A stretch of 64,000 nucleotides of DNA from the IMG/VR virus record IMGVR_UViG_2724678985_000012, one strand, 5' to 3'. The notes under the pieces were generated by a model, which saw nothing but the letters and a program-made list of their open reading frames with translations, did no database searches and was not told the DNA's origin. A program made the translations under genes and the position numbers. Shown piece after piece: positions 1 through 23,418 of this stretch; the stretch's first letter is position 1, and each line of letters opens with the position of its first letter. This DNA is from a virus (lineage: Duplodnaviria > Heunggongvirae > Uroviricota > Caudoviricetes).

Positions 1-4
1 CGAG

Positions 5-30
5 TTCTCTTAAACCAAGGTTTAGGATTG
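5..30. other. cix/hix-type crossover site for the DNA invertase
   Basis: TTCTCTTAAACCAAGGTTTAGGATTG; imperfect 12-2-12 dyad with conserved inner AAACC-AA-GGTTT, overlapping the cin stop. Confidence 0.5.
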
Positions 31-582
31 AAATGATGACGCCGGAAACTTCTTATAAAGAGTGGAAACAGCCACATCATAGATGATTGCAACCTGCTTA
101 CGGGGGATGCCCTTCTCCAGCAATCGCCGCATTTGCTGCCATGTTTCTTCCTGGTATTTAGGCCGACGCCCACCTATTCGACCTTCTGCGCGAGCTGCAT
201 CAAGTCCAGCGCGTGTACGTTCAACAATAAGTTCACGTTCCATTTCTGCCAGCGCCCCCATTACGTGAAAGAAAAAGCGCCCCATTGGTGTACTGGTATC
301 GATGGAGTCAGTGAGACTCCGGAAGTTAATGCCTCTGTCACGCAGCTCTTCCACCAGCACAACTAGGTGACGCATGCTGCGCCCAAGACGATCTAACTTC
401 CATACGACCAGGGTGTCGCCTCTGGAAAGCATACGGAGAACCTTTTTTAACCCTGGGCGTTCAGCCTTTTTGCCGCTCGCCTTATCCTCAAAAATTAGCT
501 CACATCCTGCGCTTTCAAGGGCGTTTCGTTGTAAAGCGGTGTTTTGGTCATTAGTTGATACGCGAATGTATCCAATAAGCAT
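22..582 (-). CDS. cin: Cin/Hin/Gin-family serine DNA invertase
   Basis: 186 aa; N-terminal GYIRVSTNDQ catalytic Ser motif; C-terminal HTH; near-identical over its length to recalled Hin/Cin sequences. Confidence 0.9.
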   Translation of the reverse strand: MLIGYIRVSTNDQNTALQRNALESAGCELIFEDKASGKKAERPGLKKVLRMLSRGDTLVVWKLDRLGRSMRHLVVLVEELRDRGINFRSLTDSIDTSTPMGRFFFHVMGALAEMERELIVERTRAGLDAARAEGRIGGRRPKYQEETWQQMRRLLEKGIPRKQVAIIYDVAVSTLYKKFPASSFQS

Positions 583-687
583 ATGTCCCCCCTTGTATGT
601 TAAGGGGGGAGATTTTAGAAGATGTCCTGTAAGGAAATAACAAACTGACTAAGTTAGTGGCGCATTAGATGTTATTTCTGGAGGGGT

Positions 688-1014
688 ATGTTTGCAGATT
701 ATGAAAATCTGGCTGTAGTAGTCATAACATCCCTACTAAGTGGAACCGGCGTATTCCTTCTCGGAGTTAGAGACGGGCGCATTTCTGCGTCCCTGCTCAA
801 TCTTGCGAGTGAATTGTTTACTGCGGTAACAGCCGGGCTTGCGGGGTATGGGGTGGCGGTTAGCCAAGAATGGCCTGAAGGTATCATTTTCTGCGTTGTT
901 CTGATTGCCAGTAACAACGGTAGTGAAATTTTACAGGGCTTGAAGTCCAGAGCTAGTAACGTCTTGAATCTCTTAAGCGTAATAGCGAATGGGGGAAAAG
1001 GTGGAGAGAAATAA
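688..1014 (+). CDS. small membrane protein, possible holin (LydA-like by position)
   Basis: 108 aa, hydrophobic segments, ATG with GGAGGGG SD; first gene of operon next to cin. Confidence 0.35.
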   Translation: MFADYENLAVVVITSLLSGTGVFLLGVRDGRISASLLNLASELFTAVTAGLAGYGVAVSQEWPEGIIFCVVLIASNNGSEILQGLKSRASNVLNLLSVIANGGKGGEK

Positions 1015-1460
1015 TGGGTAACTTTGGAAATTATTTCATTTTTATCATGGCATTTGTTGCCATCATTGACCGTTTCATTTTTCGTCGCAAGAGTGTTGAG
1101 ATTTTGAGTATTGGTGACGCTGTAGTGAAAGAATCCGCTATAGCATTTCCTGTTTCGCTACGTGTTAAGCGAAGCTGGGTCAGCAATGCTCAAATCGAAT
1201 ATTGGTTGCAAGACCTGAAAAATCCATCTGTGGTTATTTCAGGGAAAACGCGACCAGTTGACGCCTCAAAACGCGGTGAGAGAGAAGAGTATTTGCTCAT
1301 CGATACGAAATATCTTGAGCCAACGAAGTGGGATCTGAAAGTCACATTGACTAACGGTAACTGCCGACTGAATCCGCTTTATCGCATTTTCCCTATCAAT
1401 GACTGCATAGAGCGCCAGTTTACGATCGAAAAGCGTGAAGGAGACTGGGATGTCAAATAA
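1014..1460 (+). CDS. hypothetical protein (LydB-like antiholin by position)
   Basis: 148 aa, start overlaps upstream stop (TAATG), N-terminal hydrophobic segment. Confidence 0.3.
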   Translation: MGNFGNYFIFIMAFVAIIDRFIFRRKSVEILSIGDAVVKESAIAFPVSLRVKRSWVSNAQIEYWLQDLKNPSVVISGKTRPVDASKRGEREEYLLIDTKYLEPTKWDLKVTLTNGNCRLNPLYRIFPINDCIERQFTIEKREGDWDVK

Positions 1461-2070
1461 GAATAATTATGTTCTTCTTAATTATGATGAGTTAAACGAA
1501 AAGGGGCTGGCAAAACTCGTCAAAGAAATCAGCAAAGGTGGTTACAAGATAGCGAGGGTGATCCCTGCAAGTAATGGCAGGAAGAAAGATGGGATCATGA
1601 CGCGCACGTTTACTCTTATTGGTATTGATGAACAGACAATGGAAGTTCAGGTTAACGATACCGGTGATATATCTGGGATCAAACTGAATGGTAAAACAGT
1701 ACCGTTCAAGCCAGTAAAAACAATGTCGGCTTTGGGGCAATCTCTTGCGGCTTTATTTAATCGCGGAGCAACTTCTTTCCAGAAGTCATTAGCTCGAAAA
1801 CTTGCTCGTGCAGCAAAAAATATTGATGATGGAAATAAGAAGCGGCAGGGAGTTAAATCTAACGCTCAGAAATTAGCTGAAGCGAAAGAATCACGTGATG
1901 CACTCCGTGAAGATATCGCTAATGCTAACGACAAACTGTCTAAACTCCAGAGCAAGTCAGACAAAGTAATGCAAGATACGGGTAACGTTAAAGCTGCCTT
2001 GTCTCAGGAAGTAGCTAAGACACGTGCTCTTAAAGAAGAAATCGCGCGCCTGGAGGATGAGCATGATTAA
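1450..2070 (+). CDS. hypothetical coiled-coil protein (Dar operon, Hdf-like position)
   Basis: ATG at 1450 with AGGAG SD; C-terminal coiled coil; overlaps neighbours. Confidence 0.35.
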   Translation: MSNKNNYVLLNYDELNEKGLAKLVKEISKGGYKIARVIPASNGRKKDGIMTRTFTLIGIDEQTMEVQVNDTGDISGIKLNGKTVPFKPVKTMSALGQSLAALFNRGATSFQKSLARKLARAAKNIDDGNKKRQGVKSNAQKLAEAKESRDALREDIANANDKLSKLQSKSDKVMQDTGNVKAALSQEVAKTRALKEEIARLEDEHD

Positions 2071-4000
2071 CAATCCTTTACGAATTAATATTCAGTCTAC
2101 TTTTGCTGATACGATCCCCGGCTATATGCCAAGTCGCTGGTCTTCAGAAGAATTAAGCGAAGATGACCTGATTTTTGAGGCGGCGACCTTAGAAGATATT
2201 GAGCTTGCCTATATGGGCAATGAAATTCTGGTTGTGTCTGACGAAGCTATGTTTGAGTCCATAACTACAACCAGAATTCGGTTAGCTCAAACAATGCGAG
2301 CTTTCGTCCGTGCGCTGAATCGTGGCCTGAATGGTACGAATATTATGGCAGGGACTGATGAAGCTGGGACCGATGAAAATGGACGTAATTGTATTGGTGG
2401 TGCGATTATCGGTCGTGTACGTCGGGTAGCTAATATCCCTGTTTTGACCGCGCAGATACCGCTTACTGACGGGCAGAGTACAAGCATAATTTTCCACTCT
2501 CCAACAGCTGACGGGGCAAAAATAAAGAGTAACGACGAGCTTGTTGCATTTCAGTTTTTACTTAATAAGCGTAACGTAACTCACGTTGTCGCCCCGATTG
2601 GTGGGAGAGATGTTTCTTTAAGCCAGGTATGCCAGGCGCTATCTAATTTGATTGAGCGTAACAGCGAAAAATTTAAGAAAGCAAAAGAGCGCCAGGACAA
2701 AATGAAGGCAGATATTGAGAGTTATCTCAATGAAGCAGATAAACTGGCAGAAGAACGGTCAATAATGATTGATCAGGTGGAAGTTGCGCAACGTGGGCTG
2801 ACTGAAAAGCGTGCTGCTCTTACGGAGATGCAAAAAAAACTTGATGCCCAGAAAGCTATCAATGAGGAGTTACAAGCAAAACGCGATAAATTGTTGTCTT
2901 CTAAAGGAGAAAAAACGAAAGAACGAGCGTTTAGTGACCAGCTGCGACATGTAAAACATAATCTTGCCATTGACGGAAAAACAGTGCTGGATAATGGCGC
3001 TGAAGTTAATTATGTCACGTCCGGCAGTGACAATTTCGTTACGATAGTAGCACCTGAAGGTAAATTCAGTATTGATGCCAGTGCTGTCAAAGGAGGCAGT
3101 TTGGCAGATGCTGCAACCAAATTACTTAAAGCCTACCGAGAGCATAACGCAGAAAAATATAAAGTTGATTTGTTACCAGGCCAGCTGGAAGACTCCGAAC
3201 CACCACAGACGGACCCCGAAACAAACCCAGTATCACAACCAGAGAGCCAAGATGTAGGTAAATACCACTATGCACTTCAATCTCGCCCGGCTGGTGTTGG
3301 TGCTGTTCCGGATGGAAATAAAGCCGTGCTTGATCGTCCTGACCAGGCTGATCAGTATTACGAATATGCTCGTCACGGTATCATTACGTATGACCGTAAA
3401 CTGACAGATGAAGAAGTCAGCCAGTACGAGTTGCTTTATCTTCCTGATGAAGATGAGCTGAAAGATTTTGCAGGCCAATTGGTTGCGTCCAGCATGTCGA
3501 AACATATTGATGGCTATGTGGACCTGTTTGGCAGTGACCTGAAAACATTCAAGGCGCAAGTGAAAATTCTTTTCCGCAAAGCGTTTCCAAACGTGGCGTA
3601 TCCACTTAGTGATGGGGAGAACCTTTTCATTATGGACGTGTATAACGCCCTTCAAAATCATTCAAGCGAAGTAAAAACAGAGCATGTGGTTGAGCCAGAA
3701 TCACAACCACAACCACAACCACAACCAGCACCAGAACAGGAGTCGGAGCCAGAAGAAGCGGGTGAATCAGCAAGTGAAGCTGATCAGGAAGCAGATAAAG
3801 CGCTGGAGTACCTGAAATCCGTGCCGGAGCAGTTTACATCCCGCGATCTGACGGTCATCAGTGCTGAACTTGATCATGTGCAGGAAGCAGCAAACGCTCT
3901 AATCAGTGCAGGTCGATACGACGAGAACGAAGCCACTGTGGGTGCAGCAGTTGACTACCTGATCAATATTCTGGCTGAAATTCAGCAGGGAGGTGTTTAA
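2057..4000 (+). CDS. large coiled-coil protein, candidate DarA-like internal head / antirestriction protein
   Basis: about 647 aa, central coiled coil, acidic QP-repeat linker; size and synteny with P1 darA operon. Confidence 0.35.
   Translation: MSMINNPLRINIQSTFADTIPGYMPSRWSSEELSEDDLIFEAATLEDIELAYMGNEILVVSDEAMFESITTTRIRLAQTMRAFVRALNRGLNGTNIMAGTDEAGTDENGRNCIGGAIIGRVRRVANIPVLTAQIPLTDGQSTSIIFHSPTADGAKIKSNDELVAFQFLLNKRNVTHVVAPIGGRDVSLSQVCQALSNLIERNSEKFKKAKERQDKMKADIESYLNEADKLAEERSIMIDQVEVAQRGLTEKRAALTEMQKKLDAQKAINEELQAKRDKLLSSKGEKTKERAFSDQLRHVKHNLAIDGKTVLDNGAEVNYVTSGSDNFVTIVAPEGKFSIDASAVKGGSLADAATKLLKAYREHNAEKYKVDLLPGQLEDSEPPQTDPETNPVSQPESQDVGKYHYALQSRPAGVGAVPDGNKAVLDRPDQADQYYEYARHGIITYDRKLTDEEVSQYELLYLPDEDELKDFAGQLVASSMSKHIDGYVDLFGSDLKTFKAQVKILFRKAFPNVAYPLSDGENLFIMDVYNALQNHSSEVKTEHVVEPESQPQPQPQPAPEQESEPEEAGESASEADQEADKALEYLKSVPEQFTSRDLTVISAELDHVQEAANALISAGRYDENEATVGAAVDYLINILAEIQQGGV
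3703..3728 (+). repeat. in-frame hexanucleotide microsatellite (ACAACC)x4 encoding a QP repeat
   Basis: cacaaccacaaccacaaccacaacca inside the 2057-4000 ORF. Confidence 0.8.
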
Positions 4001-4368
4001 TGACCATCTCTGTTTTAGACCGCCTGAAATTAGGTAAAGAGCTATCAGATCTAATGCAGGCGCAGAAAACTGCGCCAGTATTGCAACGCGTCACCATTGG
4101 TAAGCAGATTGTTGATGTGATGCTGAAATTGGGCCTGGGGACTGCCGCGCAACCGGCAGCGGAACCGCAACAACAGGCTGATCCTGTTGTAGATGAAGTC
4201 CCTAAGATAGTGACTGACTTCCTGGGCGGTGTGTTCACAAAGTCCACACAAATGGAATTTATTGATGCGCTGCGTGGGATCTCAAACTATGTTGGCGAGT
4301 TCCTTACGTTGGAGCAGGCTAAAGAGCAGACCATAAGCTGGGTGAAAGCTAACGGTTATGCCGGGTAA
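4000..4368 (+). CDS. hypothetical protein
   Basis: 122 aa ORF, ATG overlapping upstream stop; hairpin downstream. Confidence 0.4.
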   Translation: MTISVLDRLKLGKELSDLMQAQKTAPVLQRVTIGKQIVDVMLKLGLGTAAQPAAEPQQQADPVVDEVPKIVTDFLGGVFTKSTQMEFIDALRGISNYVGEFLTLEQAKEQTISWVKANGYAG

Positions 4369-4450
4369 TCAAAAGGGGCTGAAATGCCCCTTTCACTTAT
4401 CTGTTCTCACATAAATCACACACTTTTTACACTCACAGCTTTCTCTATAG

Positions 4451-5848
4451 TTGGAGTGTATTTTGAACAAATCAGTTACTTCTGCGCTTTCCGAGGCCGC
4501 AGATATTAACAGCGTCATTGCTCTGGTTTCTTCATTAGAGAGGAAAGAAACACGCCTGGGGCGAAGTAGCTACGTAGTCACCAGCAAAGGTGCAGAGGTA
4601 AAGACGGCTTTTAAGGTCGTTGACGCCAGCAGTCTGATCATTTCGAACAACCTTGACGGTGCGATTAACCCGGCCTTCCCGGAAGAACTCCAACCACGAG
4701 ATCGTACCCGGCTATCCAGCAAACTCCAGGTTAACCGTATTGCCTCCAATTTACGCCCGGCACAATTAACGGATTCCGGTATGAGCAGCCACGGAGCGCC
4801 TATAGTTGGTCCGGACAACGTTGTTGAATCCGGCAACGGAAGGAGTATGGGTATCTGGCGTGCCTATGAGCAAGGACAGGCGGATGAGTATCGCCAGTAC
4901 CTGATCGACCATGCGAAAGAGTTTGGTCTGAATCCTGACGAAATTTCGCAAATGTCTATGCCCGTACTGGTGCGAGAAAGACTCACAGATGTAGACCGCG
5001 CTCAATTTGCCCGCGATTCAAACATTAGTGATCTGCAAGAGATGGCAGCAAGTGAAAAAGCGTATGCGGATGCGCAATTTCTCACTGAGAGCGTCATGGC
5101 GCTATTTAATCCTTCAGATGATGGAAATCTGCTGGCGCGGTCCAATGATGCGTTTATTCGTGCGTTTTTGCGCGAAATTGGCGATACAGCGATGGCAGGC
5201 TTGCTTACTGCCGATGGGCGTCCCACGAAACAGCTTATCGATCGCATCCAGAATGCAATTTTTGCCAAAGCGTACAAGGATGAAAGGCTTGTTCGGCTGG
5301 TGTCGGAAGAGCCAGATCCGGAAATGCGTAATATCCTGACCGCATTAAATACGGCAGCCAGCGATTTTGCGCAAATGCAGTCGCTGTCTGGCGACGCTCA
5401 CCATGACGCAGTAACAGGCTTAGTGGACGGTATAGAGCAGGTTAATGGCCTGGATACACAGGCGATAGCAGCACTCCAGGAAGCAATTAATCTTGTTCGT
5501 GAAGCCAAAGACAACGGTCAGGCCGTTGAAGAAGTGATCGCCCAAAGGGGGTTATTCGGCGACAGTACACCGGAAGCTGAGGCATTGGCGCTATTCATCG
5601 TAGCAAATAATCGCAGTGCGAAGCGTATGGGGGCAGCATTCAAAAAAATGGCGCAAAAAATCAACGACGAGCTGACTCATAAACAACAGGCATTGGGCGA
5701 TATGTTCGGCGGTGGCGATGTTGATCTGCGTCGTATTTTGTCTGCTGTATCTGATGAAATTGAGGGTGAATTTGGCGAAGGGAAAGGTCTGAACTTTGCT
5801 ATGTTTGAAAATTCTACAGATCTAAATAATTGCCGTACGGAAAACTAA
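4451..5848 (+). CDS. ParB/Srx-like nuclease-domain protein
   Basis: 465 aa; N-terminal motifs PAFPEELQPRDR and VVESGNGRSMGI resemble ParB N-domain boxes; alternative TTG start. Confidence 0.45.
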   Translation: MECILNKSVTSALSEAADINSVIALVSSLERKETRLGRSSYVVTSKGAEVKTAFKVVDASSLIISNNLDGAINPAFPEELQPRDRTRLSSKLQVNRIASNLRPAQLTDSGMSSHGAPIVGPDNVVESGNGRSMGIWRAYEQGQADEYRQYLIDHAKEFGLNPDEISQMSMPVLVRERLTDVDRAQFARDSNISDLQEMAASEKAYADAQFLTESVMALFNPSDDGNLLARSNDAFIRAFLREIGDTAMAGLLTADGRPTKQLIDRIQNAIFAKAYKDERLVRLVSEEPDPEMRNILTALNTAASDFAQMQSLSGDAHHDAVTGLVDGIEQVNGLDTQAIAALQEAINLVREAKDNGQAVEEVIAQRGLFGDSTPEAEALALFIVANNRSAKRMGAAFKKMAQKINDELTHKQQALGDMFGGGDVDLRRILSAVSDEIEGEFGEGKGLNFAMFENSTDLNNCRTEN

Positions 5849-5912
5849 ACCAACCGCTGAAATCACATACTGATTATGCTGCCGCAAAACTGGAAACAAT
5901 TTGCGGTGATTC

Positions 5913-7595
5913 ATGGCAACGAAAGACAAAAACAAAGGCTTTCTGTCAGCATTGAAGAAAGCCTTCAACGGTGGTGATGTTACGCCCGCCGATCCGGTCG
6001 TTTTTACGAGCGGGCATAGTGTCGTTGCTCGTTCCGGCCTGTCTGCTTTACGCCCAGGTATACTGGGGAGCAACAGCGATGGCATGACGAGTGCAGCAGA
6101 TTCAATTTCTTTATCCTCTGAACTGCCCGGCGAGCGCCTGCAAAAGTACAACATCCTGGAAACGATGGCTAAAAGCCCGACTATCTCGACGGCTTTAAAT
6201 ATTCACATTGCACATGCGCTTGCGCCTTCAAAAAAAACCGGACAAGCATTCATCCTTTCGCCAAAGGATGGTTCCGATGCTGAGGCAGTAAGTAGATGTG
6301 AAGAGTTAACTGCTGATTTGGGGGCGATGATTAATGACGGACTTCCTTCATGGGCCATGATTATGGCGATCTTTGGGGTGTCTTATGTCCGCCCTTATGC
6401 TGAACAGGGCAGGGGGATAACAGGCATTGAGTCCAGTTATTACACTCTGCCACACTTCGTCCAGGAGTTTTATCGTGGTAGCCAGCTGGTAGGTTTCAGT
6501 GGTGATTACATCCTGGATACGCATAGTTTGCGCAGAGTAATAACCGAACCGTGGAATCTGGTTTCCATGAAAAATCCCTATTGGACGCCGCAGCATAAAG
6601 TTATTCCGGTCAGCTACGGCACAAAAGGGTACTCACTGTTAAGTGAGCAGGCTGATAAGCCGTTAATGGAGACGCAGAATTACGGAACTTCATTCCTTGA
6701 ATACAGCTATGAACCTTACCTGAATTTATGTGCTGCGCTCGCCGCGCTGAAATCAACGCGAAATAATGCAGCCAAAATTGACCGCCTGATTGCTCTTACG
6801 ACGAACACACTGGACCCGGTTAATGCGGCGAACTATACGCGTGGCGTCAGCCAGGCATTGAAGCGACATAGTGACCTGGTGGCGCAAAGGTCGATTAATG
6901 CCAACGCTATTCCGACGGTGCTTAACCACCTGATACCTGTTATGGGAGACGGGAAGAACGGTATCACTATTGATACGCAATCCATACCCGCAGATATCAG
7001 TGGTATCGAAGACGTTATGTTTCACCTCCGGCAGCTTGCTGCAAGCCTAGGCATTGACGCAACAATGCTTGGCTGGGCTGATCAGATGAGTGGTGGACTT
7101 GGGGAAGGCGGTTGGCAGCAAACAGCTATCCAGGCCGCATTACGTGCGAACTGGATCAGACAGGCCGCGCAGCGAACTATTTATCGGCTTCATGATATTC
7201 ACCTCGCTTATAAATACGGGAAGGTTTACACCGAAAAAAACCGTCCTTATGACGTGCAATTCAACTCAATGAACACTGCTATCCAGGAAGAGGAAAACCG
7301 GGAACTGGATGCACGCGCCAACTTTGTTGCTGTCATCTCCCAAATTATGGACCAGATCCAGAACAACCCGAAACTGGCTGGTAGTGACGCGTTTATGCGT
7401 TATCTGTTCACCGAGCAGTTGCACATCGACGATGACACTCTCAACACCATGATCAAAGAGTTTAAGGCGAATGAATCAGAGCAAAACAACGAGCATGGTA
7501 TGTACGAATCCGCGCCGTTGTCGTCCGGTGACGATCCGGAAAACTGGACGCCAGAACAGTTAATAAACTTTGCAAAATTTGTGATGAGCAATTAA
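5913..7595 (+). CDS. putative portal protein
   Basis: 560 aa, acidic C-terminus, followed by protease/scaffold-like gene; P1 prt-pro-like synteny; not motif-verified. Confidence 0.4.
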   Translation: MATKDKNKGFLSALKKAFNGGDVTPADPVVFTSGHSVVARSGLSALRPGILGSNSDGMTSAADSISLSSELPGERLQKYNILETMAKSPTISTALNIHIAHALAPSKKTGQAFILSPKDGSDAEAVSRCEELTADLGAMINDGLPSWAMIMAIFGVSYVRPYAEQGRGITGIESSYYTLPHFVQEFYRGSQLVGFSGDYILDTHSLRRVITEPWNLVSMKNPYWTPQHKVIPVSYGTKGYSLLSEQADKPLMETQNYGTSFLEYSYEPYLNLCAALAALKSTRNNAAKIDRLIALTTNTLDPVNAANYTRGVSQALKRHSDLVAQRSINANAIPTVLNHLIPVMGDGKNGITIDTQSIPADISGIEDVMFHLRQLAASLGIDATMLGWADQMSGGLGEGGWQQTAIQAALRANWIRQAAQRTIYRLHDIHLAYKYGKVYTEKNRPYDVQFNSMNTAIQEEENRELDARANFVAVISQIMDQIQNNPKLAGSDAFMRYLFTEQLHIDDDTLNTMIKEFKANESEQNNEHGMYESAPLSSGDDPENWTPEQLINFAKFVMSN

Positions 7596-7608
7596 CCGGA
7601 GGGAAATA

Positions 7609-8607
7609 ATGCAATCACTGAATACTGTTACGGATCGCTTCTCCCTGGTAGAGAAAATCCGCAAACACACACCGCAGAACAACCGAAATTATGTCATTCA
7701 GTCGGTACGAGACACATTCAACTCGCCAGAAACAAAAGAGCGTATCGCGCTGGGTGAGATGTATGGTTATTACGGTCATGGTCGCCGGGCGATGCACTAT
7801 AACAAAACGAAAAGCCTGAACTTGCCGGAAGTCTCTGTTGTGATGGTAGATGGGAAGCCTGTTGTATTGGAGAACGTGCCGTCAAACAGGACTATCGACA
7901 TTTCGATTGACGACAACGGCATTGTTACGCATACGCAGGAAATACTGGATACAGACACCGGGCGTATTGTTCAGGGCATGATTAATTCTGGTGCTGGTGG
8001 TTGGTCGTGGGCTACATCTGGTCCAGATTCATCGGTATCCCTGGTAAAGTCTTTCCACGGCTTTGATTACGTAACTGTGCCTAACTATATCAGCCTCGAC
8101 AAGAAAAGCCTGATGCTTGAATCAGCAGAAGAGCGCGATGCGGCTATTCATGCAGCACTTATCGAACAAGGTTTTACCGATAACGCTGCTACGGATCTGG
8201 TTCACCACTTTTCAGCAATGAAAAATCAGCAAGCCATGCTCGAATCTGCACATCGTGAAGCCCTGGAATCAGAATTGATGCTCCTTGAAGTGGAAAACAT
8301 ACAGCTTCGAGATAAGCTGCGCGCTCAAACAGCGATGATGGAAAGCCAGGGGGAAAATGCAAAGCAATGCCGCCGGATTTTGCGTGACGCTATCCAGGAA
8401 ATGCCTGTTTTTATCAGCGCAGAACAGCGCCGGGCGCTCTGCCGTATGCAGTCTGAAGATGATGCCCGCATAGTGGCTGCGATGCTTGAATCTCTTGGGG
8501 CAAATGCTACTTATGGCTTACCGGTATCAGGCAAGAAAGAACCAGAGTTATCACCGAAGGAGAACAAAAACACCACCCCGTTACTCTTCGTTTCTAGAAG
8601 GGGGTAA
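7609..8607 (+). CDS. putative head maturation protease / scaffold (Pro-like)
   Basis: 332 aa, C-terminal coiled coil, immediately downstream of portal candidate. Confidence 0.3.
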   Translation: MQSLNTVTDRFSLVEKIRKHTPQNNRNYVIQSVRDTFNSPETKERIALGEMYGYYGHGRRAMHYNKTKSLNLPEVSVVMVDGKPVVLENVPSNRTIDISIDDNGIVTHTQEILDTDTGRIVQGMINSGAGGWSWATSGPDSSVSLVKSFHGFDYVTVPNYISLDKKSLMLESAEERDAAIHAALIEQGFTDNAATDLVHHFSAMKNQQAMLESAHREALESELMLLEVENIQLRDKLRAQTAMMESQGENAKQCRRILRDAIQEMPVFISAEQRRALCRMQSEDDARIVAAMLESLGANATYGLPVSGKKEPELSPKENKNTTPLLFVSRRG

Positions 8608-8618
8608 CCGCCTTGTTA

Positions 8619-8637
8619 AGTTAAATTTCTAACATAG
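8619..8637 (+). promoter_or_regulatory. C1-operator-like motif site 1
   Basis: AAATTTCTAACATAG; member of 13-site family; followed by dyad AGTGTATTTATATACACT. Confidence 0.5.
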
Positions 8638-8720
8638 TGTATTTATATACACTGTTGATCCTGGTGGATGGGATCGAGTAGGATCGCGGTCACTGCTCCG
8701 GTAGCGACTGCCAAAAAAGC

Positions 8721-8746
8721 AAAAGCCGCTGAGAAGCGGCTTTTTG
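8721..8746 (+). terminator. rho-independent terminator
   Basis: agccgc-tgagaa-gcggc stem-loop followed by TTTTT. Confidence 0.6.
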
Positions 8747-8807
8747 GGTGTATAAATCCACTGCCATAGATTTATACGGTAGATAGATTTTTTCACGGAA
8801 CTATCTG

Positions 8808-9770
8808 GTGAGTATTTTAAATTCAGTTTCAGTAACTTTCAACACTTCTGAGTATAAAAACAACACTGAATACCACAAAAAAATCAAAGGTCATCAGTTG
8901 AGTTTTTTTGCTCGTCATAGCGGTCTTCTTTCCCCTTCACATAGCGCCATTATTGCCGAGTTCGCCAACCTGGCAGGGTCTACCGATGAATACATGATCC
9001 GTCGCTCATATGCTGATATGTCCGAGATTACAGGACGCAGCATTTCTACTGTGCGCCGGGCATTTGCTGAAGCGACGAAGTGCGGAATGCTTGTTAAGCA
9101 ACATCAGGTAGCGAATAACAATGCCCAGGTGTGTAACGTATATCGGTTTACGACACAATTTCTCCACTTCATTCATGTAGCAATGGAGATAGGGGGTAAG
9201 CAGGGCATCAAATTTGCCAACGCCACAAAGCTGGTTAAGCAGTTGATTTCAAAGGTTCGTTATTTTTTTGAAACTGGGAACCCCCTGTTCAAATTGAACA
9301 AGTCCCCCCATGTTCAAAATGAACAGCCAATAGAAAATAAGAGTCACTCTATAGCCAAAAGAAGAGAAAGATCATGCGCGGTTCAGCCAAAGGCTTCACC
9401 AGCAGATAGTACTCAAGCGGATAATGGGGGACTGGATAAAAAAACAGTAATCAGGGAAGAACATACCAACCACTGCCTGGCGGCGGCAAAAGCGAGAGCT
9501 GCAAAGCGTCGTTCAGACGAGGGGCACGCAAAACGGCAGGCTCTGTATCGTACCGCTGAAAAGCTGGCAAAAAAATTTGCATGGATACGTAGTGCCGCTA
9601 CCGCAGTGAATAAGCCTAAACAATCCAGTGCCCTGGATTTCTCAATGGATTATTCTGGCTCCCAGGGGTGTGTAACCATTGGTGAAGCCTTTGACCTGAT
9701 GAAACAGCGTGGCTATCGGTCTGAATTTGACCGGGAGGATTGGTCAATCCCTGCGGGATTTAGGGGATGA
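8808..9770 (+). CDS. hypothetical protein with winged-helix-like segment
   Basis: 320 aa; GTG start uncertain; segment ITGRSISTVRRAFAEA HTH-like; basic C-terminal half. Confidence 0.3.
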   Translation: MSILNSVSVTFNTSEYKNNTEYHKKIKGHQLSFFARHSGLLSPSHSAIIAEFANLAGSTDEYMIRRSYADMSEITGRSISTVRRAFAEATKCGMLVKQHQVANNNAQVCNVYRFTTQFLHFIHVAMEIGGKQGIKFANATKLVKQLISKVRYFFETGNPLFKLNKSPHVQNEQPIENKSHSIAKRRERSCAVQPKASPADSTQADNGGLDKKTVIREEHTNHCLAAAKARAAKRRSDEGHAKRQALYRTAEKLAKKFAWIRSAATAVNKPKQSSALDFSMDYSGSQGCVTIGEAFDLMKQRGYRSEFDREDWSIPAGFRG

Positions 9771-9821
9771 CCTGTGTGTCTACAAAGCATCCCAATGATC
9801 GGAAAATGCTCGCTCGATGAT

Positions 9822-9838
9822 TTGTGTTAGAAAATTAA
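9822..9838 (-). promoter_or_regulatory. C1-operator-like motif site 2 (with inverted partial partner at 9845-9856)
   Basis: TGTGTTAGAAAATTAATTT then GTTTCTAAAT. Confidence 0.45.
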
Positions 9839-10019
9839 TTTGCTGTTTCTAAATCGGAATGTATGATCTGCATCATCGACTGAAGTCATCCATTGCTGAA
9901 ATTTTTAGTTGATCTTCCATGTTTTCAGGCTTATATTCATGCCGTCGTAGCAAATTCTGCGACCAGGTTTGACAGCCTGAATGTTAGTGCGGACAACCGC
10001 AGATTTCCGATATTGCGGT

Positions 10020-10183
10020 ATTTTTGTGTCCGTAAACCGCGTTACGCCCGAATTATGGTGGGGCGTGATGGGGAGGCTTCGGCCTGCTGGTTTCACTAAC
10101 GCCAGTCTGTCAACCCTGTCACGTCCTGCCACCTGTTTGACAGCGGGTAGCAGGTTGTTAAACCTGTTAGTGAGGCCGTAACT
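10020..10183 (+). ncRNA. c4-like antisense RNA / icd leader region of immI module 1 (boundaries approximate)
   Basis: structured leader directly upstream of icd-like ORF; internal complementary segments GGTTTCACTAACGCC / CCTGTTAGTGAGGCC. Confidence 0.3.
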
Positions 10184-11981: not shown

Positions 11982-14900
11982 TTGGACAAACTACTTCATT
12001 CAATCAGTGAAGCCTCCAGCTTAGGCGAACTGATTGAAATTGTTAGTCGGTTGCATAAATTACGTGCTGTTGCGACCTTTGGCGTCAGGAAAGCCGATGG
12101 CGTCAGTATTCAGAAAACACGCCGGGCAGCAAACAATGCCGCAGTAAATCTTCTTAATTCCCTTCCGCCCGGCTTCGATGGGGCGAAATTAACTGACGAA
12201 CAACGTCAGATTCTTGCCGGGTATACCGGTGAAGGCGGCCTGACAGATGGTGAGGGCAGCCAATACGAATACTACACGCCACAGTTTATGGCTGAAGGTA
12301 TATGGGATCTGTTTGCTGACTACGGTATTGATGGCGGGCACGTACTGGAACCATCAGCGGGCACAGGTATTTTCCAGGAGACAAAACGGCAGGGCATGAT
12401 AATGACCAGCGCCGAACTGTCTCCGATTTCCGGTCGAATAAACCAGCTTTTGCACCCGGAAGACGATGTGAATATCGGGGCGTTTGAGGCGCTGGCGGCG
12501 AAAGACGCAATGTATGATCACGCTGTAGGTAACGTACCGTTTGGTGAAGGGCGTTCCGGTGTCGCCGGGCTTGATCCGGCATATGCAAACGAGAAGAACG
12601 TTGGCAATTACTTTGTGCTGCGCACGATCGACAAGGTTAAGCCTGGTGGGCTTATCGTATTGGTGGTGCCGAATGGCATGACCGATGGTGCGAAATATAA
12701 AAAATTGCGCGATAAAGTCAGCCGTAAAGCGGAATTTTTGGGCGCACATCGTATGCCTTCTGGTACGTTCAGCGAATCCGGTACAGATACCGTGGTGGAC
12801 GTATGGGTATTGCGTAAACACCCGGAAACCTTCCTGGAGATGATCCCCGACACGGATGATTCAACACTCAAATCGGCAAACGTCCTTTGGGATACCTTCC
12901 TCAAAGGAAAATGGTTTACAACCGAAGGGAAGCGATTTGTTTACGGCGACATGGAACGTACCAGCTTCCGCAATACCCTGGTGGTGAAAAAAGACGGTCG
13001 TGTATCCAATGAGTCGATGAAAACCGCGCTATCTCGTCGCTTTGATAGTCGCATCAATTGGGATTTGCTCGGCGTAACTACTCAGGCATGGCAGGGCGCG
13101 AAAGTGGGCGATAAACGCCTTGTAGGCGGTATCTGGCATGAGTTTGATGGTCTGAAATGGGTTAAGGACACGACAACCAAATCCTCCGCGCTTGATGTAA
13201 GTCGATATGGTGTTTCGACGTTTGGCGATCTGCAGATCGCGTTCCAGTCAACAAACGGGATTCTGGCTTTGTCATGGGACCAGATATCGGCGATCGCGTC
13301 CGACTATCCATCGGTTGTCAGTGATGAAGTGGCAGCAATGATTCGCTTTGCTGGCAAGCAGCGAGAAAAAGACAGGGAGCGCGTTATGCGCGGTGCGCTG
13401 ATAGGTCAGTTGATCAACAAGGCACTTGATTTGCGTAACCTGGGTGTGAACGTTGATGACAAACTGGCAGATGCATCCCGCCTGGCGGCAGCAGAAGTTG
13501 CGAAGTATGGACCACCGCACGCCATTAAGCTGAATGGGCTTGCTGAAGCTGGCGCTAAAAACTGGATGACGTTCACTGGCAATGTGAAACAGGATGGTTC
13601 CACTTCTGACCTTCTGGCAGGGCGACTTGATGTAACGGATGGTGCTGCCGGTATTGACTTTACACGTCCTGAACAAGTGATAGCACATCTTTTCAGTGAT
13701 GTAGCCCTTAATCCTATAACGCTGGGAGACTTTCGTGAGGCGTTTGCTGGTGAACTGCCAGAGGACGACGACGCGGCCCTTGAATACCTGGCGAAATTTG
13801 ATGATATCGCTATTGATGGGTATGGCTGCCTGCTGCCGATGGACCGCGCCACCAGCGGCGATATTGCAACCAAAACAGCATTGCTGATGGGCTGGCGTGA
13901 TGCGTCAACAGGTGAGCAGAAAGCGAACTTTGAGCGTCAGTTGGCGAAAATCGAAGAGAAACGTATTTTCACGCCACTAAATAAAGTCACCGTTAATCTG
14001 AATGCCCGCTGGCTGGATCGCCGCTTGATAAAAGAGTTCCTGGCAGAGCAGGGCTATGACGAGTTTAAGTACACTGAACCTGATCTGAAGGTCGTCGATG
14101 GCATTCTGGTATCTCCGGACGATTACGAAGGTAAGGACGGGGTATTTACCGGCTATCAGCTACGAACCGTAAACGGCAAAAACGGGAATGAGTTCAAGAA
14201 GGCCAACAATAAAGACGGCTTCCTGAACCAGTTAGAAAACTACCTGAACGGTGTTAAACCGCGTGGGCAGAACGCTAACGAGTACCTGGATAAAATTGCT
14301 CAACTGGAAGTTAGTTTTAACGACTGGTTACGCACTCACCCGCAGGCTGATCAGATAGCCCGCGAGTATAACGACGCATTCAATGGTTTCATTCCGTTCA
14401 CGCATTCTGACGCACCGCTTGGCCTGGAAGGGCTTAGTGGAAAGCGCATTCCTCTTACTTATCAGAATGAAGAAGTTCGGCGCTTGTCAGAAGATGGGCG
14501 CGGCATCATGGGATTTGGTACCGGGCTGGGTAAAACCACGACCGCGCTTGCGCTTGAGGCGTATAACTTCGAAACAGGTCGCACTAAACGCACGTGTATT
14601 GTTGTTCCGAAGGCGGTTTATCAGAACTGGTATCACGAGGCACAGAGTTTCTACAGTGCTGATGCCTTCGCCAATATGATGTTTATCGGTTTGGATGAAG
14701 TTCGTGATGACAGCGGAAATATTCTGACCGCGCCGGTGCTTGATGAAAATGGCGAACCACGCCTCGACAGTAACGGGCAGCCTCTTACCAGAAATGTTGT
14801 GAAAGAGTCCGCCAGCGCCGTTATCGTTCAGCGCATGAACATGATCCCGTCGTCAAATTGGCGAACGGTCATCATGACAAAAGAACAATTCGCGTCTATC

Positions 14901-17900
14901 CCGCTACGAGAAAAAACCATCGAGGAGAACTCACAGCAAGCTGTCTTTAATGCTGTGGAAATGGGGCGTCTTGACCTGGCGTCCGGTAAACACCGTGATG
15001 CGCAGAAGAAGAACAAGATTAAGGATCAGGCCGCGAATACCGGTACAACGAAGAAGCAGAATATCCCGTACTTTGAGGATATGAACTTCGATAGCGTGAT
15101 TGCCGACGAGGGGCATAACTACCGCAACTCCTTTAATGCCGGGCGTGAAGCGGGACAACTGGCATATTTGCCTAACCCGGCAGTATCCAAGATGGCCCGC
15201 GACATGGCTGTAAAAGCTGCGTACATGATGAAACGCAACAACGGGCGTGGTGTAGTCATGCTGACGGCAACTCCGCTGGTGAACAGTCCGATTGATGCCT
15301 TCAACATGCTGTCTACTGTCATTCCGCAGGAAGAGTGGATGCGCATGGGCATCATTACGCCTGATGATTTCGTTCGTGTGTTTGGCAAAACAGCCACAGT
15401 TCAGGTCCAGAAAATTTCCGGGGAAGTGGAAGAGAAGCAGGGGCTGGTGGGCTTCCAGAACCTTGACGGCCTGCGTGGTATTTTCCATCGTTGGACCACT
15501 CTGAAGACTGCTGCAGATGTCGGAGCAACGGTTAAAATTCCCGACATCATTGAGAACACCTTGCAGATCCCGATGACAGGGGAGCAGGAGACTGCTTATG
15601 AAGAGCTTCGTAAGCGTGCTCAGGAGTTAAGTCGCAATGATGAGCTGACAGTCGATGAAAACGGGCATATCACTAACGACAAACCGGATGATTTCATCTT
15701 CTCCATCATCCGTGACATGGACAAGGTTGCTATAGACCCGGATCTGTATGCCAGTGCGATTACATTCCAGTTCCCCGTTGAGCTTGCAGACCAGGTAAAA
15801 GCTATTGCTGATGCCTTGCCAAAAGTAGCTGGCGGTAAAGTGGCAGATGATGTTGATGAGGCCGAGGAAGACGGCGCTGGCGGGCTGGTCAGTACGCGTA
15901 CCAGCAAGGTAGTGAAGACCGCTTTTAGTGAACATCCGACGCATGTTGAAATACGTGCCAGCATTGAACTGGAAGCTGAAATACTTAAGGCCATTGCGGC
16001 TGCCGGTATTGATATGCAGCAGGTATCGCACCCCATCCCGCCGAAGTATGCCGCGCTGATCGAAAATCTTCGTGAAGGTCTGAAGAACGGTAAGCAGATC
16101 GTCTTTATTGATGAAAAAGCCCAGCACCAGAAGCTGCGCCGTATTATCGCCAGTGCACTGCAAATGCCGGAGCAGGAGATTGGCATTATCAATGCGACGA
16201 CAGTTAGCCAGGCTGGCGGCATCAAGCTGAAGAAGGTGAATAAGCCGACCGAACCTACTCCAAACAAAAACGGTGAATACAAAGAAGGGGCATGGGAAAC
16301 CTACTACAGCAAACTTGCCCAATATGAGGATTATCTCTCAGCCAAAAATGATGCTGGCCTTGAGGGCATGGAAGGTATTGCCGCCGACTATAACGAAGGT
16401 CGCACGCGCATCATAATCTGTAACAAGAAGGCTGAAGTAGGTATTAACCTGCACATCGGGACAACCGATATCCACCACCTGACACTACCCTGGACACCAG
16501 CCAGTATCGACCAACGAAATGGGCGCGGTGCGCGCGTAGGTTCACCGCAAGAGAAGGTCAATGTTCACTACTATTGTGGCAAAGGCACATTCGACGACTT
16601 CCGTCTGGATACGCTGAAACGTAAGAAAGACTGGATCAAGATGGTGATGACCTCCGACATGTCAGAGATCGCCAATGGTGATGCGGATGATGCTGATGAA
16701 CGCGCCATTATGCTGGCGGCAAACCCGGAAGAACGCCGCGCAATCATGGCTCGCCAGGCGCAAGAGCGTGAAGAACGTCTGAAACTGAAAGCACAGCGCG
16801 AGGCCAACAATGCTCTCGATATCTACCTGAAAGCGGCAAACGCCGCCGGAAAAGATATCGGCATGATGGAGACAGAACTGAAAAGCGCGATGGAACAGAT
16901 AGAGTATTACCAGCGCAATCTTGACGACCTGATAAAAGCGGGTACGAACAGGAATGGGCAAAAATACGCGCTTGAGCAGTTGAGTAGCTACAGAAAACGT
17001 GCGCGGGTGCTGAAGTTTGCGATCACCAGGGCAAAAGACGCGGATACCATAATGAAACGCTCTCGTGGTGATGTGGAGCGCGCTATTAAGTCTGGTGTGC
17101 TGGATATCAGTATCGATGTTATTCAGAACCCACAGGAATATATGCGCACTGACAAGAATATCCTGTTGCATAAAGGTAGTTATTACCGTGCAGTCATTGA
17201 TGATCGCGAAACAACAGCGATTGTCCGGGTGGAAAAAATTGACGGTGAAAAAGCACAATACATCTGCCGTATCGCCTGGCTGGATAGAGCAAGTCGTTAC
17301 GCTCGATCACCGGGGTCAATCGTTACATTGCCGTTTGACTCTGTGATTGAAGCGGTAACTTTTGAAGAGGGGGTAGCTGAATCGCGCGCAACGGCTGCGC
17401 GTGGTGTTCAGTGCCACCAGCTATCAACGTCACTTACTCGCGATCAGTTCTATGATGCTATTCGTAACGGAGTAATGAAGGTCACTACAGGCCAGCCTGG
17501 TAGAGCATGGGGCGGTGAACCAGGTATTAAATACTGGGCCTATCGCACCGATGATGGTCAGATCGCGCTGTCATCGACCTATGATGGCATGATAGGACAG
17601 AAAATCGGGCGTACATCGGATATTGCACCAGAGCAGTGGATTTACCCTGATATCAACAATGAGGCGCTGAAGCGTGAAGTGGCAAAAATACAAGCCAGTG
17701 ATAATCCGCTGAATATCGTGGACGGAGAGGGATTCCTCCAGGCATTGTATGGGTATGATTACATCCAGGGAATGCAGGCATGGGGCGCACAAGCAACGAT
17801 GGATGATGTTGCCCAGGAGTTCGAAAACTGGATGGCTGGGCGTGGTCTGTCAGGTCGCTCGCTTAATAAAGTCACTTCTGAAGATATTCTTAGCTTGTTC

Positions 17901-18818
17901 CGCAAACCGTCCGGAGAAGGTCTGGAATCATTCTGGAGGACCGTGCTGGCATACCGTTTATTCCAGGGCAGGATGAAAGCCTTTAGCAATATCGATGATA
18001 TTGAACGGATGTTTAATCAGGTCAAGATAGCGAAAATTAAGACGAAGATCGAAAAAACACGTTCTGCGCTGGTGGCCTGGCGCGATGCATTGTTTGAGCA
18101 ATATAAATCACTCAGTGATGCAGATGGATGGGCGGCATTGGAACAGCTGGCGAATAATGGGGTAGATGGAGCGAAACTCGCCATTGTTCAGGCTGATAAC
18201 CCCCTGGAATCACCGGCAGCACAGTGGATTAAGGTGGGGGCTGTCATCAATGCATTTGATGAAAAATACATTAGTAAGGACGATTTTGCTGATGCTGTTT
18301 CTGTTAATCGCCTGGTAGAAATGGCTACCCGCCGCGCCCGTGAGTTGAAAGACGGCGACTATGTGAATGAGTTGCCGGATACGCTCAAATCGGCAACGTG
18401 GCAGGACTATGTATCGCTGAAAAACGGCGGGGCCACTGAATCAGAGATCGCGGAAAGGCTTGAGCAGGCTGAAAGCAAAAGAGAAGAGCAGGCGGCAGTG
18501 GCTGAAGCCAGAGCTGATGAAGCGGCGAATGATGACTATATCATTGTGGTTAATGATAAGCCGATTCGCGCTAAGGCGCGTGTTCGCGGGCGCTGGTGGA
18601 GCGTCAGCGAGGACGTTGGCGCGGTTTATCTCATTGCCGACCAACCAGGTTCCTCGACAATACGGAACGCCAAAGACGCGATTAAGAAGATTGGCGGGCG
18701 TTTCTGGAATTTTGAAGCAAACCCGGTTGCTGATGTGAACTTTGACCGTCCTGCATGGATGGTATCTACGCGTTACTCGGTAGATGAACTGCGTAAAATA
18801 ATCGCCGATGCGGCCTAA
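11982..18818 (+). CDS. darB: DarB-like giant N6-adenine methyltransferase + DExH helicase fusion (antirestriction)
   Basis: 2278 aa; TTG start with AGAGGGGGA SD; MTase motifs EPSAGTGIF and NVPFGE; helicase motifs GFGTGLGKTT and ADEGHNYRN. Confidence 0.8.
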   Translation: MDKLLHSISEASSLGELIEIVSRLHKLRAVATFGVRKADGVSIQKTRRAANNAAVNLLNSLPPGFDGAKLTDEQRQILAGYTGEGGLTDGEGSQYEYYTPQFMAEGIWDLFADYGIDGGHVLEPSAGTGIFQETKRQGMIMTSAELSPISGRINQLLHPEDDVNIGAFEALAAKDAMYDHAVGNVPFGEGRSGVAGLDPAYANEKNVGNYFVLRTIDKVKPGGLIVLVVPNGMTDGAKYKKLRDKVSRKAEFLGAHRMPSGTFSESGTDTVVDVWVLRKHPETFLEMIPDTDDSTLKSANVLWDTFLKGKWFTTEGKRFVYGDMERTSFRNTLVVKKDGRVSNESMKTALSRRFDSRINWDLLGVTTQAWQGAKVGDKRLVGGIWHEFDGLKWVKDTTTKSSALDVSRYGVSTFGDLQIAFQSTNGILALSWDQISAIASDYPSVVSDEVAAMIRFAGKQREKDRERVMRGALIGQLINKALDLRNLGVNVDDKLADASRLAAAEVAKYGPPHAIKLNGLAEAGAKNWMTFTGNVKQDGSTSDLLAGRLDVTDGAAGIDFTRPEQVIAHLFSDVALNPITLGDFREAFAGELPEDDDAALEYLAKFDDIAIDGYGCLLPMDRATSGDIATKTALLMGWRDASTGEQKANFERQLAKIEEKRIFTPLNKVTVNLNARWLDRRLIKEFLAEQGYDEFKYTEPDLKVVDGILVSPDDYEGKDGVFTGYQLRTVNGKNGNEFKKANNKDGFLNQLENYLNGVKPRGQNANEYLDKIAQLEVSFNDWLRTHPQADQIAREYNDAFNGFIPFTHSDAPLGLEGLSGKRIPLTYQNEEVRRLSEDGRGIMGFGTGLGKTTTALALEAYNFETGRTKRTCIVVPKAVYQNWYHEAQSFYSADAFANMMFIGLDEVRDDSGNILTAPVLDENGEPRLDSNGQPLTRNVVKESASAVIVQRMNMIPSSNWRTVIMTKEQFASIPLREKTIEENSQQAVFNAVEMGRLDLASGKHRDAQKKNKIKDQAANTGTTKKQNIPYFEDMNFDSVIADEGHNYRNSFNAGREAGQLAYLPNPAVSKMARDMAVKAAYMMKRNNGRGVVMLTATPLVNSPIDAFNMLSTVIPQEEWMRMGIITPDDFVRVFGKTATVQVQKISGEVEEKQGLVGFQNLDGLRGIFHRWTTLKTAADVGATVKIPDIIENTLQIPMTGEQETAYEELRKRAQELSRNDELTVDENGHITNDKPDDFIFSIIRDMDKVAIDPDLYASAITFQFPVELADQVKAIADALPKVAGGKVADDVDEAEEDGAGGLVSTRTSKVVKTAFSEHPTHVEIRASIELEAEILKAIAAAGIDMQQVSHPIPPKYAALIENLREGLKNGKQIVFIDEKAQHQKLRRIIASALQMPEQEIGIINATTVSQAGGIKLKKVNKPTEPTPNKNGEYKEGAWETYYSKLAQYEDYLSAKNDAGLEGMEGIAADYNEGRTRIIICNKKAEVGINLHIGTTDIHHLTLPWTPASIDQRNGRGARVGSPQEKVNVHYYCGKGTFDDFRLDTLKRKKDWIKMVMTSDMSEIANGDADDADERAIMLAANPEERRAIMARQAQEREERLKLKAQREANNALDIYLKAANAAGKDIGMMETELKSAMEQIEYYQRNLDDLIKAGTNRNGQKYALEQLSSYRKRARVLKFAITRAKDADTIMKRSRGDVERAIKSGVLDISIDVIQNPQEYMRTDKNILLHKGSYYRAVIDDRETTAIVRVEKIDGEKAQYICRIAWLDRASRYARSPGSIVTLPFDSVIEAVTFEEGVAESRATAARGVQCHQLSTSLTRDQFYDAIRNGVMKVTTGQPGRAWGGEPGIKYWAYRTDDGQIALSSTYDGMIGQKIGRTSDIAPEQWIYPDINNEALKREVAKIQASDNPLNIVDGEGFLQALYGYDYIQGMQAWGAQATMDDVAQEFENWMAGRGLSGRSLNKVTSEDILSLFRKPSGEGLESFWRTVLAYRLFQGRMKAFSNIDDIERMFNQVKIAKIKTKIEKTRSALVAWRDALFEQYKSLSDADGWAALEQLANNGVDGAKLAIVQADNPLESPAAQWIKVGAVINAFDEKYISKDDFADAVSVNRLVEMATRRARELKDGDYVNELPDTLKSATWQDYVSLKNGGATESEIAERLEQAESKREEQAAVAEARADEAANDDYIIVVNDKPIRAKARVRGRWWSVSEDVGAVYLIADQPGSSTIRNAKDAIKKIGGRFWNFEANPVADVNFDRPAWMVSTRYSVDELRKIIADAA

Positions 18819-23249: not shown

Positions 23250-23326
23250 GATGGTGTAGCTCAGTAGGATAGAGCAGCAGCCTTCTAAGCTGTCGGTCGG
23301 TGGTTCGAATCCACCCACCATCGCCA
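23250..23326 (+). tRNA. tRNA-Arg (anticodon UCU)
   Basis: 77 nt cloverleaf: acceptor GATGGTG/CACCATC, anticodon loop CTTCTAA, T-loop TTCGAAT, encoded CCA. Confidence 0.85.
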
Positions 23327-23331
23327 ATTTA

Positions 23332-23418
23332 GGGGAGTTAGTCCGTAGGGGTAGCGGGGTAGACTGTAAATCTACTGTCATTGCGACTCGGGTGGTTCGA
23401 CTCCATCACTCCCCACCA
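23332..23418 (+). tRNA. tRNA-Tyr (anticodon GUA), long variable arm
   Basis: 87 nt; anticodon stem-loop GTAGA-CTGTAAA-TCTAC as in E. coli tRNA-Tyr; acceptor GGGGAGT/ACTCCCC; CCA. Confidence 0.75.

Follow-up and report, generated by a model that had tools for sequence, protein, structure and literature searches.

A probable D6-lineage orthologue of the bacteriophage P1 dar operon that encodes a short form of DdrB

Six co-directional open reading frames lie on the + strand between cin (22–582, − strand) and the portal gene (5913–7595) in the 64,000-nt stretch of Caudoviricetes DNA analysed here (IMG/VR record IMGVR_UViG_2724678985_000012; the whole stretch is referred to as the window). The cin DNA invertase gene is a divergent neighbour, as in P1, with 96% nucleotide identity to P1 cin, and is annotated as a DNA invertase in Escherichia phage D6. 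The layout agrees with the initial annotation, which described six co-directional, overlapping genes next to cin, except that overlap holds for four of the five junctions: lydA/lydB and darA/ddrA share TAATG overlaps at 1014 and 4000 (the lydB start overlapping the lydA stop), lydB/hdf overlap by 11 nt and hdf/darA by 8 nt, while a structured spacer of 94 nt lies between ddrA and ddrB. The six genes are intact and code, in the P1 order, for homologues of LydA, LydB, Hdf, DarA, DdrA and DdrB, the best reciprocal-type match of each being its P1 counterpart (E 8e-22 to 0). A resemblance to the P1 lydA-lydB / hdf-darA-ddrA-ddrB operon had been suggested, with lack of homology to the P1 Dar components and a failure of the ParB-like motifs to score in HMM searches named as the observations that would count against it; pairwise alignments to P1 were positive for all six proteins, and the motifs did score in an HMM. 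Identity to P1 is modest (33–43%) in five of the six and 64% in DdrB. With high confidence, we assign these genes to the D6 lineage as its orthologue of the late ‘dar’ operon of bacteriophage P1.

The same genes, with the same order and starts and 93–100% protein identity, are found as orf30–orf25 of phage D6 (NC_050154 / MF356679), whose annotation describes them as similar to P1 lydA, lydB, hdf, darA, ddrA and ddrB. Phage D6 was reportedly described by Gilcrease and Casjens in 2018. Two patches (3601–4200 and 5401–5800) have diverged from D6 to 79–91% nucleotide identity, and only D6 carries an insert of ~1 kb (orf24, DUF4145, and orf23) between ddrB and prt. Shared with the P1 operon are the gene order next to cin, LydB, the DarA_N, DarA_C and ddrB-ParB domains and darB-ulx; unlike P1, there is no lydC upstream, and the operon is followed by co-directional prt-pro where P1 has hxr/IS1/ssb/lyz. 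P1-like phage-plasmids of Vibrio and Pantoea carry this operon too. A conserved iddB antisense gene was considered as a candidate and rejected.

The first two genes form a holin–antiholin pair arrangement, a LydA-family small membrane protein followed by a LydB-family gene. The lydA product (688–1014, + strand; 108 aa) is 43% identical to P1 LydA (E=4e-23), matches the PHROG holin family (8e-39) and has three hydrophobicity peaks, which bears out its description as a holin-like membrane protein; the Pfam LydA holin model scored 18 bits, under its cut-off of 28.4 bits. The lydB product, a LydA antagonist/antiholin (1014–1460, + strand; 148 aa), matches Pfam LydB (PF16084, E=1.1e-24, 87 bits) and PHROG (3e-69) with 34% identity to P1 LydB. 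By analogy with P1, where lysis roles have been assigned to LydA and LydB (PMC9025707), the holin and its antagonist would act with an unlinked endolysin to time lysis. No match in the window was obtained at E≤0.01 when P1 Lyz, LydC, LydD, LydE, Lxc and Hxr were used as tblastn queries.

The next three genes encode putative head proteins. The hdf gene (1450–2070, + strand), most likely starting at ATG 1450, encodes a 206-aa protein with a DarA_N-type domain (PF18788, 8.4e-18) and a C-terminal helix, 40% identity to P1 Hdf and a PHROG Hdf-like match (1.4e-76). The predicted internal head protein DarA (2063–4000, + strand) has DarA_N (4.8e-40), a coiled coil, DarA_C (PF18789, 9e-19), a QP/acidic linker and a C-terminal tail, and is 39% identical to P1 DarA across 625 aa. 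DarA_N is thus common to Hdf and DarA, with DarA_C also present in DarA. The two proteins match the solved P1 chains in PDB entry 9ukm (9ukm_H ‘Hdf’, 3.1e-25; DarA, 9ukm_I, 7.2e-122) and, on the P1 model, Hdf is taken to be the capsid-bound partner of DarA. The coiled coil and QP repeat (QPQPQPQP) had been recognized correctly in what was listed as a 647-aa protein, but the start is most likely ATG 2063, with GGAGG 7 nt upstream, rather than 2057, giving 645 aa. The 122-aa ddrA product (4000–4368, + strand) is 33% identical to P1 DdrA (E=8e-22) and matches the PHROG DdrA-like family (4.8e-50); no Pfam family matched it.

By analogy with P1, the operon would be transcribed late, and we infer a candidate late-promoter region at 648–670 (+ strand) from an 11-bp palindrome followed by TTAGAT. 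The palindrome ACTAAGTTAGT (648–658) includes AAGTTAGTG, which equals the −22 box of P1 LPdar (AAGTTACTT) at 7 of 9 bases in the equivalent position, and TTAGAT (665–670) lies 17 nt ahead of the lydA ATG. The combination of AAGTTAGTG and TTAGAT (651–670), spaced by 5 nt, falls outside the strict P1-type pattern (AAGTnACTT, 3–6 nt, TAnnnT, at most 1 mismatch), a scan for which gave no site ahead of lydA or prt and a single perfect one in the window, at 53213 (− strand). Matches to the palindrome near lydA are no commoner in the window than expected (8 vs 10.4), and a generic sigma-70/terminator scan gave background levels. The gap between ddrA and ddrB is only 12 nt in P1. Here, directly after the ddrA stop, lies a strong GC hairpin (AAAGGGGC-loop-GCCCCTTT; 4372–4393, + strand) that is terminator- or attenuator-like, is kept in D6 and has a canonical terminator at the equivalent position in a Pantoea relative. 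RNA folding of 4362–4470 gave −34.5 kcal/mol (z=−5.9), with a second hairpin (4428–4460, + strand) predicted to pair the ddrB Shine–Dalgarno GGAG (4454–4457). The spacer probably lowers expression of ddrB relative to that of the high-copy Hdf and DarA.

For the last gene, ddrB, the most likely start is TTG 4463, behind this GGAG and as annotated in D6, rather than TTG 4451; the gene so encodes 461 aa (4463–5848, + strand) instead of the 465 aa first listed. The ParB-box-like motifs attributed to it (ELQPRDR and ESGNGRSMGI) are indeed there, in a domain at 4586–4981 (+ strand) that has LQPRDR and VESGNGR as invariant motifs and matches the ‘ddrB-like ParB superfamily domain’ PF18763 far above chance (E=2.7e-42; 144 bits vs a cut-off of 27.6). 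The ParBc model proposed for the check, PF02195, did not score at E≤1; it is the DdrB-specific model of the same superfamily that does. Nor is the domain foreign to known Dar components, to none of which the initial annotation could attribute it: P1 DdrB has it (PF18763, E=2.1e-39) and is the prototype of the family, which was named for DdrB by Iyer et al. in work on polyvalent proteins (2017; PMC5512222) and by Pfam. The protein is 64% identical to residues 2–442 of the 995-residue P1 DdrB and, in 461-aa numbering, its L76-QPRDR81 motif and the GxxR arginine motif G124-N-G-R127, which belongs to the active-site pocket in the ParB/Srx superfamily and is shared with the PF18763 family (PMC5512222), are invariant among 27 homologues. 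Being phage-encoded and in a late-gene context beside virion proteins, this DdrB corresponds to the ‘solo’ form of that domain analysis.

The domain has the alpha+beta ParB/Srx fold, its closest folds being those of CTP-binding KorB and PadC. Likeness in sequence is low (~11–13% identity to KorB, 8qa8, PadC, 6ryk, pNOB8 ParB-N, 5k5d, and sulfiredoxin, 6ky4, with no PF02195 match), PDB sequence and profile searches with DdrB gave no relatives, and the HTH and dimerization domains of KorB, PadC and ParB are replaced in DdrB by a family-specific helical domain of ~270 aa for which no structural relative was found. Superfamily membership, in an element that is a plasmid prophage, might suggest a plasmid partition/DNA-segregation ParB, or a stand-alone ParB-like nuclease, unrelated to the dar genes and behind them by chance. 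We consider this extremely improbable and rejected the partition reading on the orthology to P1 DdrB, a head protein represented by 39 peptides in mass spectrometry (PMC9024508); the absence of a ParBc score and of any HTH, centromere-binding or dimerization domain by Pfam or PDB profile search, the conserved location in a late operon, and a separate ParA/ParB pair beside the DdrB gene in a Vibrio relative all point the same way.

A description of the set as a variant one is thus wrong for the ParB domain, which is standard in DdrB, and holds only for the missing C-terminal metallopeptidase half. Relative to P1, DdrB here is without residues ~443–995, including the HELGH metallopeptidase: its end corresponds to P1 residue ~450, the zincin HExxH motif is absent, and tblastn with P1 DdrB 441–995 found no match in the window. 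This restriction of the alignment to P1 residues 2–442, with no C-terminal trace, is what would be expected of a decaying, non-functional remnant of a P1-type 995-aa ddrB with its 3′ half deleted. Such a pseudogene is, in our view, very unlikely and largely refuted: the reading frame is unbroken, with 96% identity to D6 orf25 and a dN/dS of 0.08 (purifying selection), the 98%-identical cluster holds 1121 member sequences, and conservation reaches the end of the core, as in the invariant NNRSxK motif at 382–387. Short forms of 441–481 aa also turn up repeatedly in elements of 85–94 kb from Pantoea, Leclercia, Photobacterium and Vibrio, and the core alone (33–416) is kept in unrelated Acinetobacter, Aeromonas, Alcaligenes and Pseudoalteromonas phages. 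Phage D6 already provides an annotated example of the form without the metallopeptidase half. The HExxH metallopeptidase is a trait of the P1 protein and not of the family, many relatives being without it; this DdrB has no effector domain, whereas relatives have MPTase (P1), InPase (Vibrio), LPD3 or an N-terminal ART.

Outside the operon, 6 kb downstream, are darB (11982–18818, + strand), encoding a 2278-aa N6-methylase and SNF2 helicase (Pfam N6_Mtase, SNF2 and Helicase_C; 44% identity to P1 DarB over ~2000 aa), and directly behind it, as in P1, ulx (18855–19289, + strand; 144 aa; 49% identity to P1 Ulx; PHROG Ulx-like, 5.9e-57). In P1, DarB is the effector loaded through DdrB; virion mass spectrometry and roles of the Dar proteins are documented (PMC9024508), as are their order of incorporation and capsid location (PMC12810830). 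If the orthologous operon works in the same way, Hdf and DarA would bind the inner capsid surface at penton–hexon junctions, touch the DNA and nucleate a packaging series in which DdrA enters first, DdrB next and DarB and Ulx last. The Dar proteins would accompany the DNA out of the head and protect it in cis against type I restriction, protection being divided, as in P1, between DarA/DdrA (EcoA type) and DarB/Ulx/DdrB (EcoK/EcoB). The minimal DdrB ‘core’, a predicted ParB/Srx domain of nucleotide-binding or nuclease type with an intact GxxR plus the conserved helical domain, would be the portion responsible for head entry and DarB recruitment. As the C-terminal zincin peptidase half, the putative autoprocessing enzyme of the P1 protein, is absent, no autoprocessing is expected, and because the middle region of P1 DdrB, part of the 76-kDa packaged form, is missing as well, DdrB might contribute to DarB loading in a different way from its P1 counterpart.

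After ejection the short DdrB might act mainly as an enzyme rather than only as an adaptor in DarB assembly. Its ParB/Srx domain would then bind or hydrolyse nucleotide (e.g. CTP or ATP) or cut DNA and so disable host defence. We give this a real but minority chance; it overlaps with orthology to the P1 operon and does not exclude it. The invariance of the GxxR arginine and LQPRDR among the 27 homologues, the CTP-binding nearest folds, the enzymatic effectors (InPase and ADP-ribosyltransferase) fused to the core in relatives and the case for NTP sensing or degradation made by Iyer et al. (PMC5512222) are in its favour, but the sole P1 DdrB phenotype cited is that it ‘aids DarB addition to capsid’ (PMC9024508), and our literature search found no reported activity for any DdrB-type domain. 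A rather doubtful idea, offered tentatively, is that the ~440-aa core with a swappable C-terminal effector slot is a self-sufficient capsid-targeting/ejection chassis in which the ParB pocket serves as a nucleotide switch for loading or release; the slot may then be empty (D6-type) or hold a metallopeptidase (P1) or a pyrophosphatase-like InPase (Vibrio P1-like phage-plasmids). Were this true, the D6-type DdrB would be a natural minimal form and peptidase processing would be dispensable for DarB loading.

The operon, its homology to P1 and the DdrB-type ParB domain are already in public annotation and literature, and many phage-plasmids sequenced from E. coli and Salmonella carry identical copies; our literature search found no experimental work on D6-type Dar proteins. 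The value of the D6-lineage operon is comparative, in that the short DdrB, together with its InPase- and ART-bearing relatives, distinguishes the conserved core from accessory domains, and the D6-type protein is a convenient minimal construct for probing the function of the ParB/Srx domain in the Dar system.

In the ORF listing, cin (22-582, -), a divergently oriented invertase gene, and an ORF of 560 aa at 5913 flank six co-directional + strand ORFs, as the initial annotation had proposed apart from small coordinate corrections. In both records of phage D6 the corresponding genes are annotated as similar to P1 lydA, lydB, hdf, darA, ddrA and ddrB, and blastp served as an independent check of this annotation, giving protein identities to D6 and P1 (with E value and aligned length for P1) of 100% and 43% for LydA (4e-23, 106 aa), 100% and 34% for LydB (6e-29, 126 aa), 99.5% and 40% for Hdf (1e-30, 144 aa), 94.7% and 39% for DarA (6e-141, 625 aa), 92.7% and 33% for DdrA (8e-22, 118 aa) and 95.8% and 64% for DdrB (0, 447 aa). 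Pfam searches matched LydB to the LydB family (1.1e-24), Hdf to DarA_N (8.4e-18), DarA to DarA_N (4.8e-40) and DarA_C (9e-19) and the last protein to ddrB-ParB (2.7e-42), while the PHROGs matches were to a holin, a lysis-determining protein, an Hdf-like protein, a protein ‘released from the phage upon host infection’ and a DdrA-like protein. The reading as a P1-like lysis and Dar operon was correct, and the system is one already known and annotated. DarA and Hdf also match the P1 cryo-EM chains 9ukm_I (7e-122) and 9ukm_H (3e-25), and the whole operon (LydA-like, LydB, Hdf, DarA, a DdrA-sized ORF and DdrB) is kept in one Vibrio and one Pantoea element. Elsewhere in the window are counterparts of DarB, a 2278-aa methylase-SNF2 protein (11982-18818, 44% identical to P1 DarB), and of Ulx, the ORF after darB (18855-19289, 49% identical), and therefore all six P1 Dar components are matched.

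By megablast, window 1-8000 is 96.6% identical to Escherichia phage D6 over 99% of the query, and the DNA-level match to P1, P7 and related phages is confined to cin. Window 600-6000 matches 120 PLSDB plasmids (115 across 80% or more of its length), 22 of them at 99% identity or more, including several 100%-identical E. coli plasmids of about 92 kb; the remainder have E. coli, Salmonella or Shigella hosts. Together the D6 and plasmid matches identify the window as a D6-like phage-plasmid. It carries the C4 antisense RNA, a P1-type immunity regulator, twice (9931-10136 and 49217-49427), one copy accompanied by an a1/b1 target element and the second adjoined by an isrK-like sRNA, and a cluster of five tRNAs (23250-25524; Arg-TCT, Tyr, Thr-TGT, Ser-TGA and Met), a set slightly unlike the four (Asn, Thr, Ser and Met) described in the D6-like plasmid pYU39_89. 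The operon is about 96-100% identical to D6 in nucleotide sequence except for two patches at 79-91% (3601-4200 and 5401-5800), covering the C-terminal tail of DarA plus the N-terminus of DdrA in one case and the last 130 or so codons of ddrB in the other, and in ddrB the synonymous divergence is 0.02 for the ParB part and jumps to 0.37 for the helical part, a pattern that suggests recombinational mosaicism. The region 3′ of ddrB is a variable site (ddrB-prt junction, 5808-5860): D6 has an insert of about 1 kb there (DUF4145 protein and orf23; 8814-9925 of comparison sequence L001) that is missing from the window, and the Pantoea relative L006 has a DpnII/MboI-like gene directly 3′ of ddrB (8499-9771) and a weak Tad2-like match (13142-13399) about 4.8 kb further along, past repL.

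The ParB-like motifs of the last protein, not at first attributable to known Dar components, are real but are a hallmark of DdrB itself. P1 DdrB matches the same Pfam model (2.1e-39), and it was the prototype on which ‘DdrB-like ParB domains’ were defined, with a conserved arginine in the active site, both solo and polyvalent forms and a late-gene context (Iyer et al. 2017, PMC5512222); the supposed anomaly thus disappears. Canonical ParBc (PF02195), the model initially named as a check, did not score on DdrB in the Pfam search. The structure list for the ParB-like domain included KorB (8qa8; rank 1, 7.0), PadC (6ryk; rank 2, 6.9), pNOB8 ParB-N (5k5d; rank 4, 6.2), SbnI (5ujd; rank 10, 5.3) and sulfiredoxin (6ky4; rank 16, 5.3), and the Foldseek search with full-length DdrB and the PDB sequence or profile searches were uninformative.

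P1 DdrB has 995 aa with HELGH close to the C-terminus, read by Iyer et al. (PMC5512222) as an MPTase that probably autoprocesses the protein to the 76-kDa packaged form, whereas DdrB of the window aligns to P1 residues 2-442 only and the rest of P1 DdrB is found nowhere in the window. Short DdrB forms recur on 85-94-kb contigs of Pantoea, Leclercia, Photobacterium and Vibrio, residues 33-416 are kept in phages of Acinetobacter, Aeromonas, Alcaligenes and Pseudoalteromonas, and in relatives the core bears other modules (C-terminal InPase in Vibrio, LPD3 or an N-terminal ADP-ribosyltransferase). That the short gene is a product of decay is largely ruled out by a dN/dS against D6 of 0.08 and a closest cluster of 1121 members.

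On the basis of Shine-Dalgarno spacing and the D6 annotation, the favoured starts are ATG 1450 (hdf), ATG 2063 (darA, 645 aa) and TTG 4463 (ddrB, 461 aa). The first five genes overlap (TAATG at 1014 and 4000; 11 nt and 8 nt elsewhere) and are translationally coupled; ddrB is set apart from ddrA by a 94-nt spacer (4369-4462) with two predicted hairpins (z=-5.9), one terminator-like (4372-4393) and one pairing the ddrB Shine-Dalgarno sequence (4428-4460). D6 has the same spacer sequence and Pantoea L006 a canonical terminator at this position (about 6963-6992), whereas P1 has only a 12-nt gap without a structured spacer. It is plausible that the hairpins lower expression of ddrB and the genes downstream. 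Within ddrB, an antisense ORF (5002-5277, -) occupies the place of P1 iddB and is 62% identical to it over 80 aa, but is cut down to 91 aa and starts with TTG; the resemblance seems to follow from the conservation of ddrB and so speaks against iddB as a real gene. Upstream of lydA lies an 11-bp palindrome with AAGTTAGTG, matching the P1 LPdar -22 box AAGTTACTT at seven of nine bases, with TTAGAT 3′ of it; this candidate promoter does not pass a strict scan for late promoters, and the window shows no enrichment of the palindrome. Across the window only one P1-type late-promoter match is perfect, at 53213 (-; AAGTGACTT, 4 nt, TAATCT).

The late dar operon of P1 also includes the genes for LydA and LydB, which cooperate in lysis with an unlinked SAR endolysin (PMC9025707). 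No homologue of P1 Lyz, LydC, LydD or LydE was found in the whole window (tblastn, E<=0.01), and the endolysin partner of LydA and LydB is either divergent or encoded outside it. Inside the P1 capsid 55 DarA-Hdf pairs sit at penton-hexon junctions, touching the DNA, and are missing from emptied heads; incorporation proceeds from Hdf and DarA to DdrA, DdrB, DarB and Ulx (PMC12810830). For DdrB the table of the P1 virion proteome has the entry ‘aids DarB addition to capsid’ (PMC9024508), and Dar protection acts in cis, on packaged DNA (PMC12707154). By analogy, the operon described here would follow the P1 scheme, with an unprocessed 50-kDa DdrB core.
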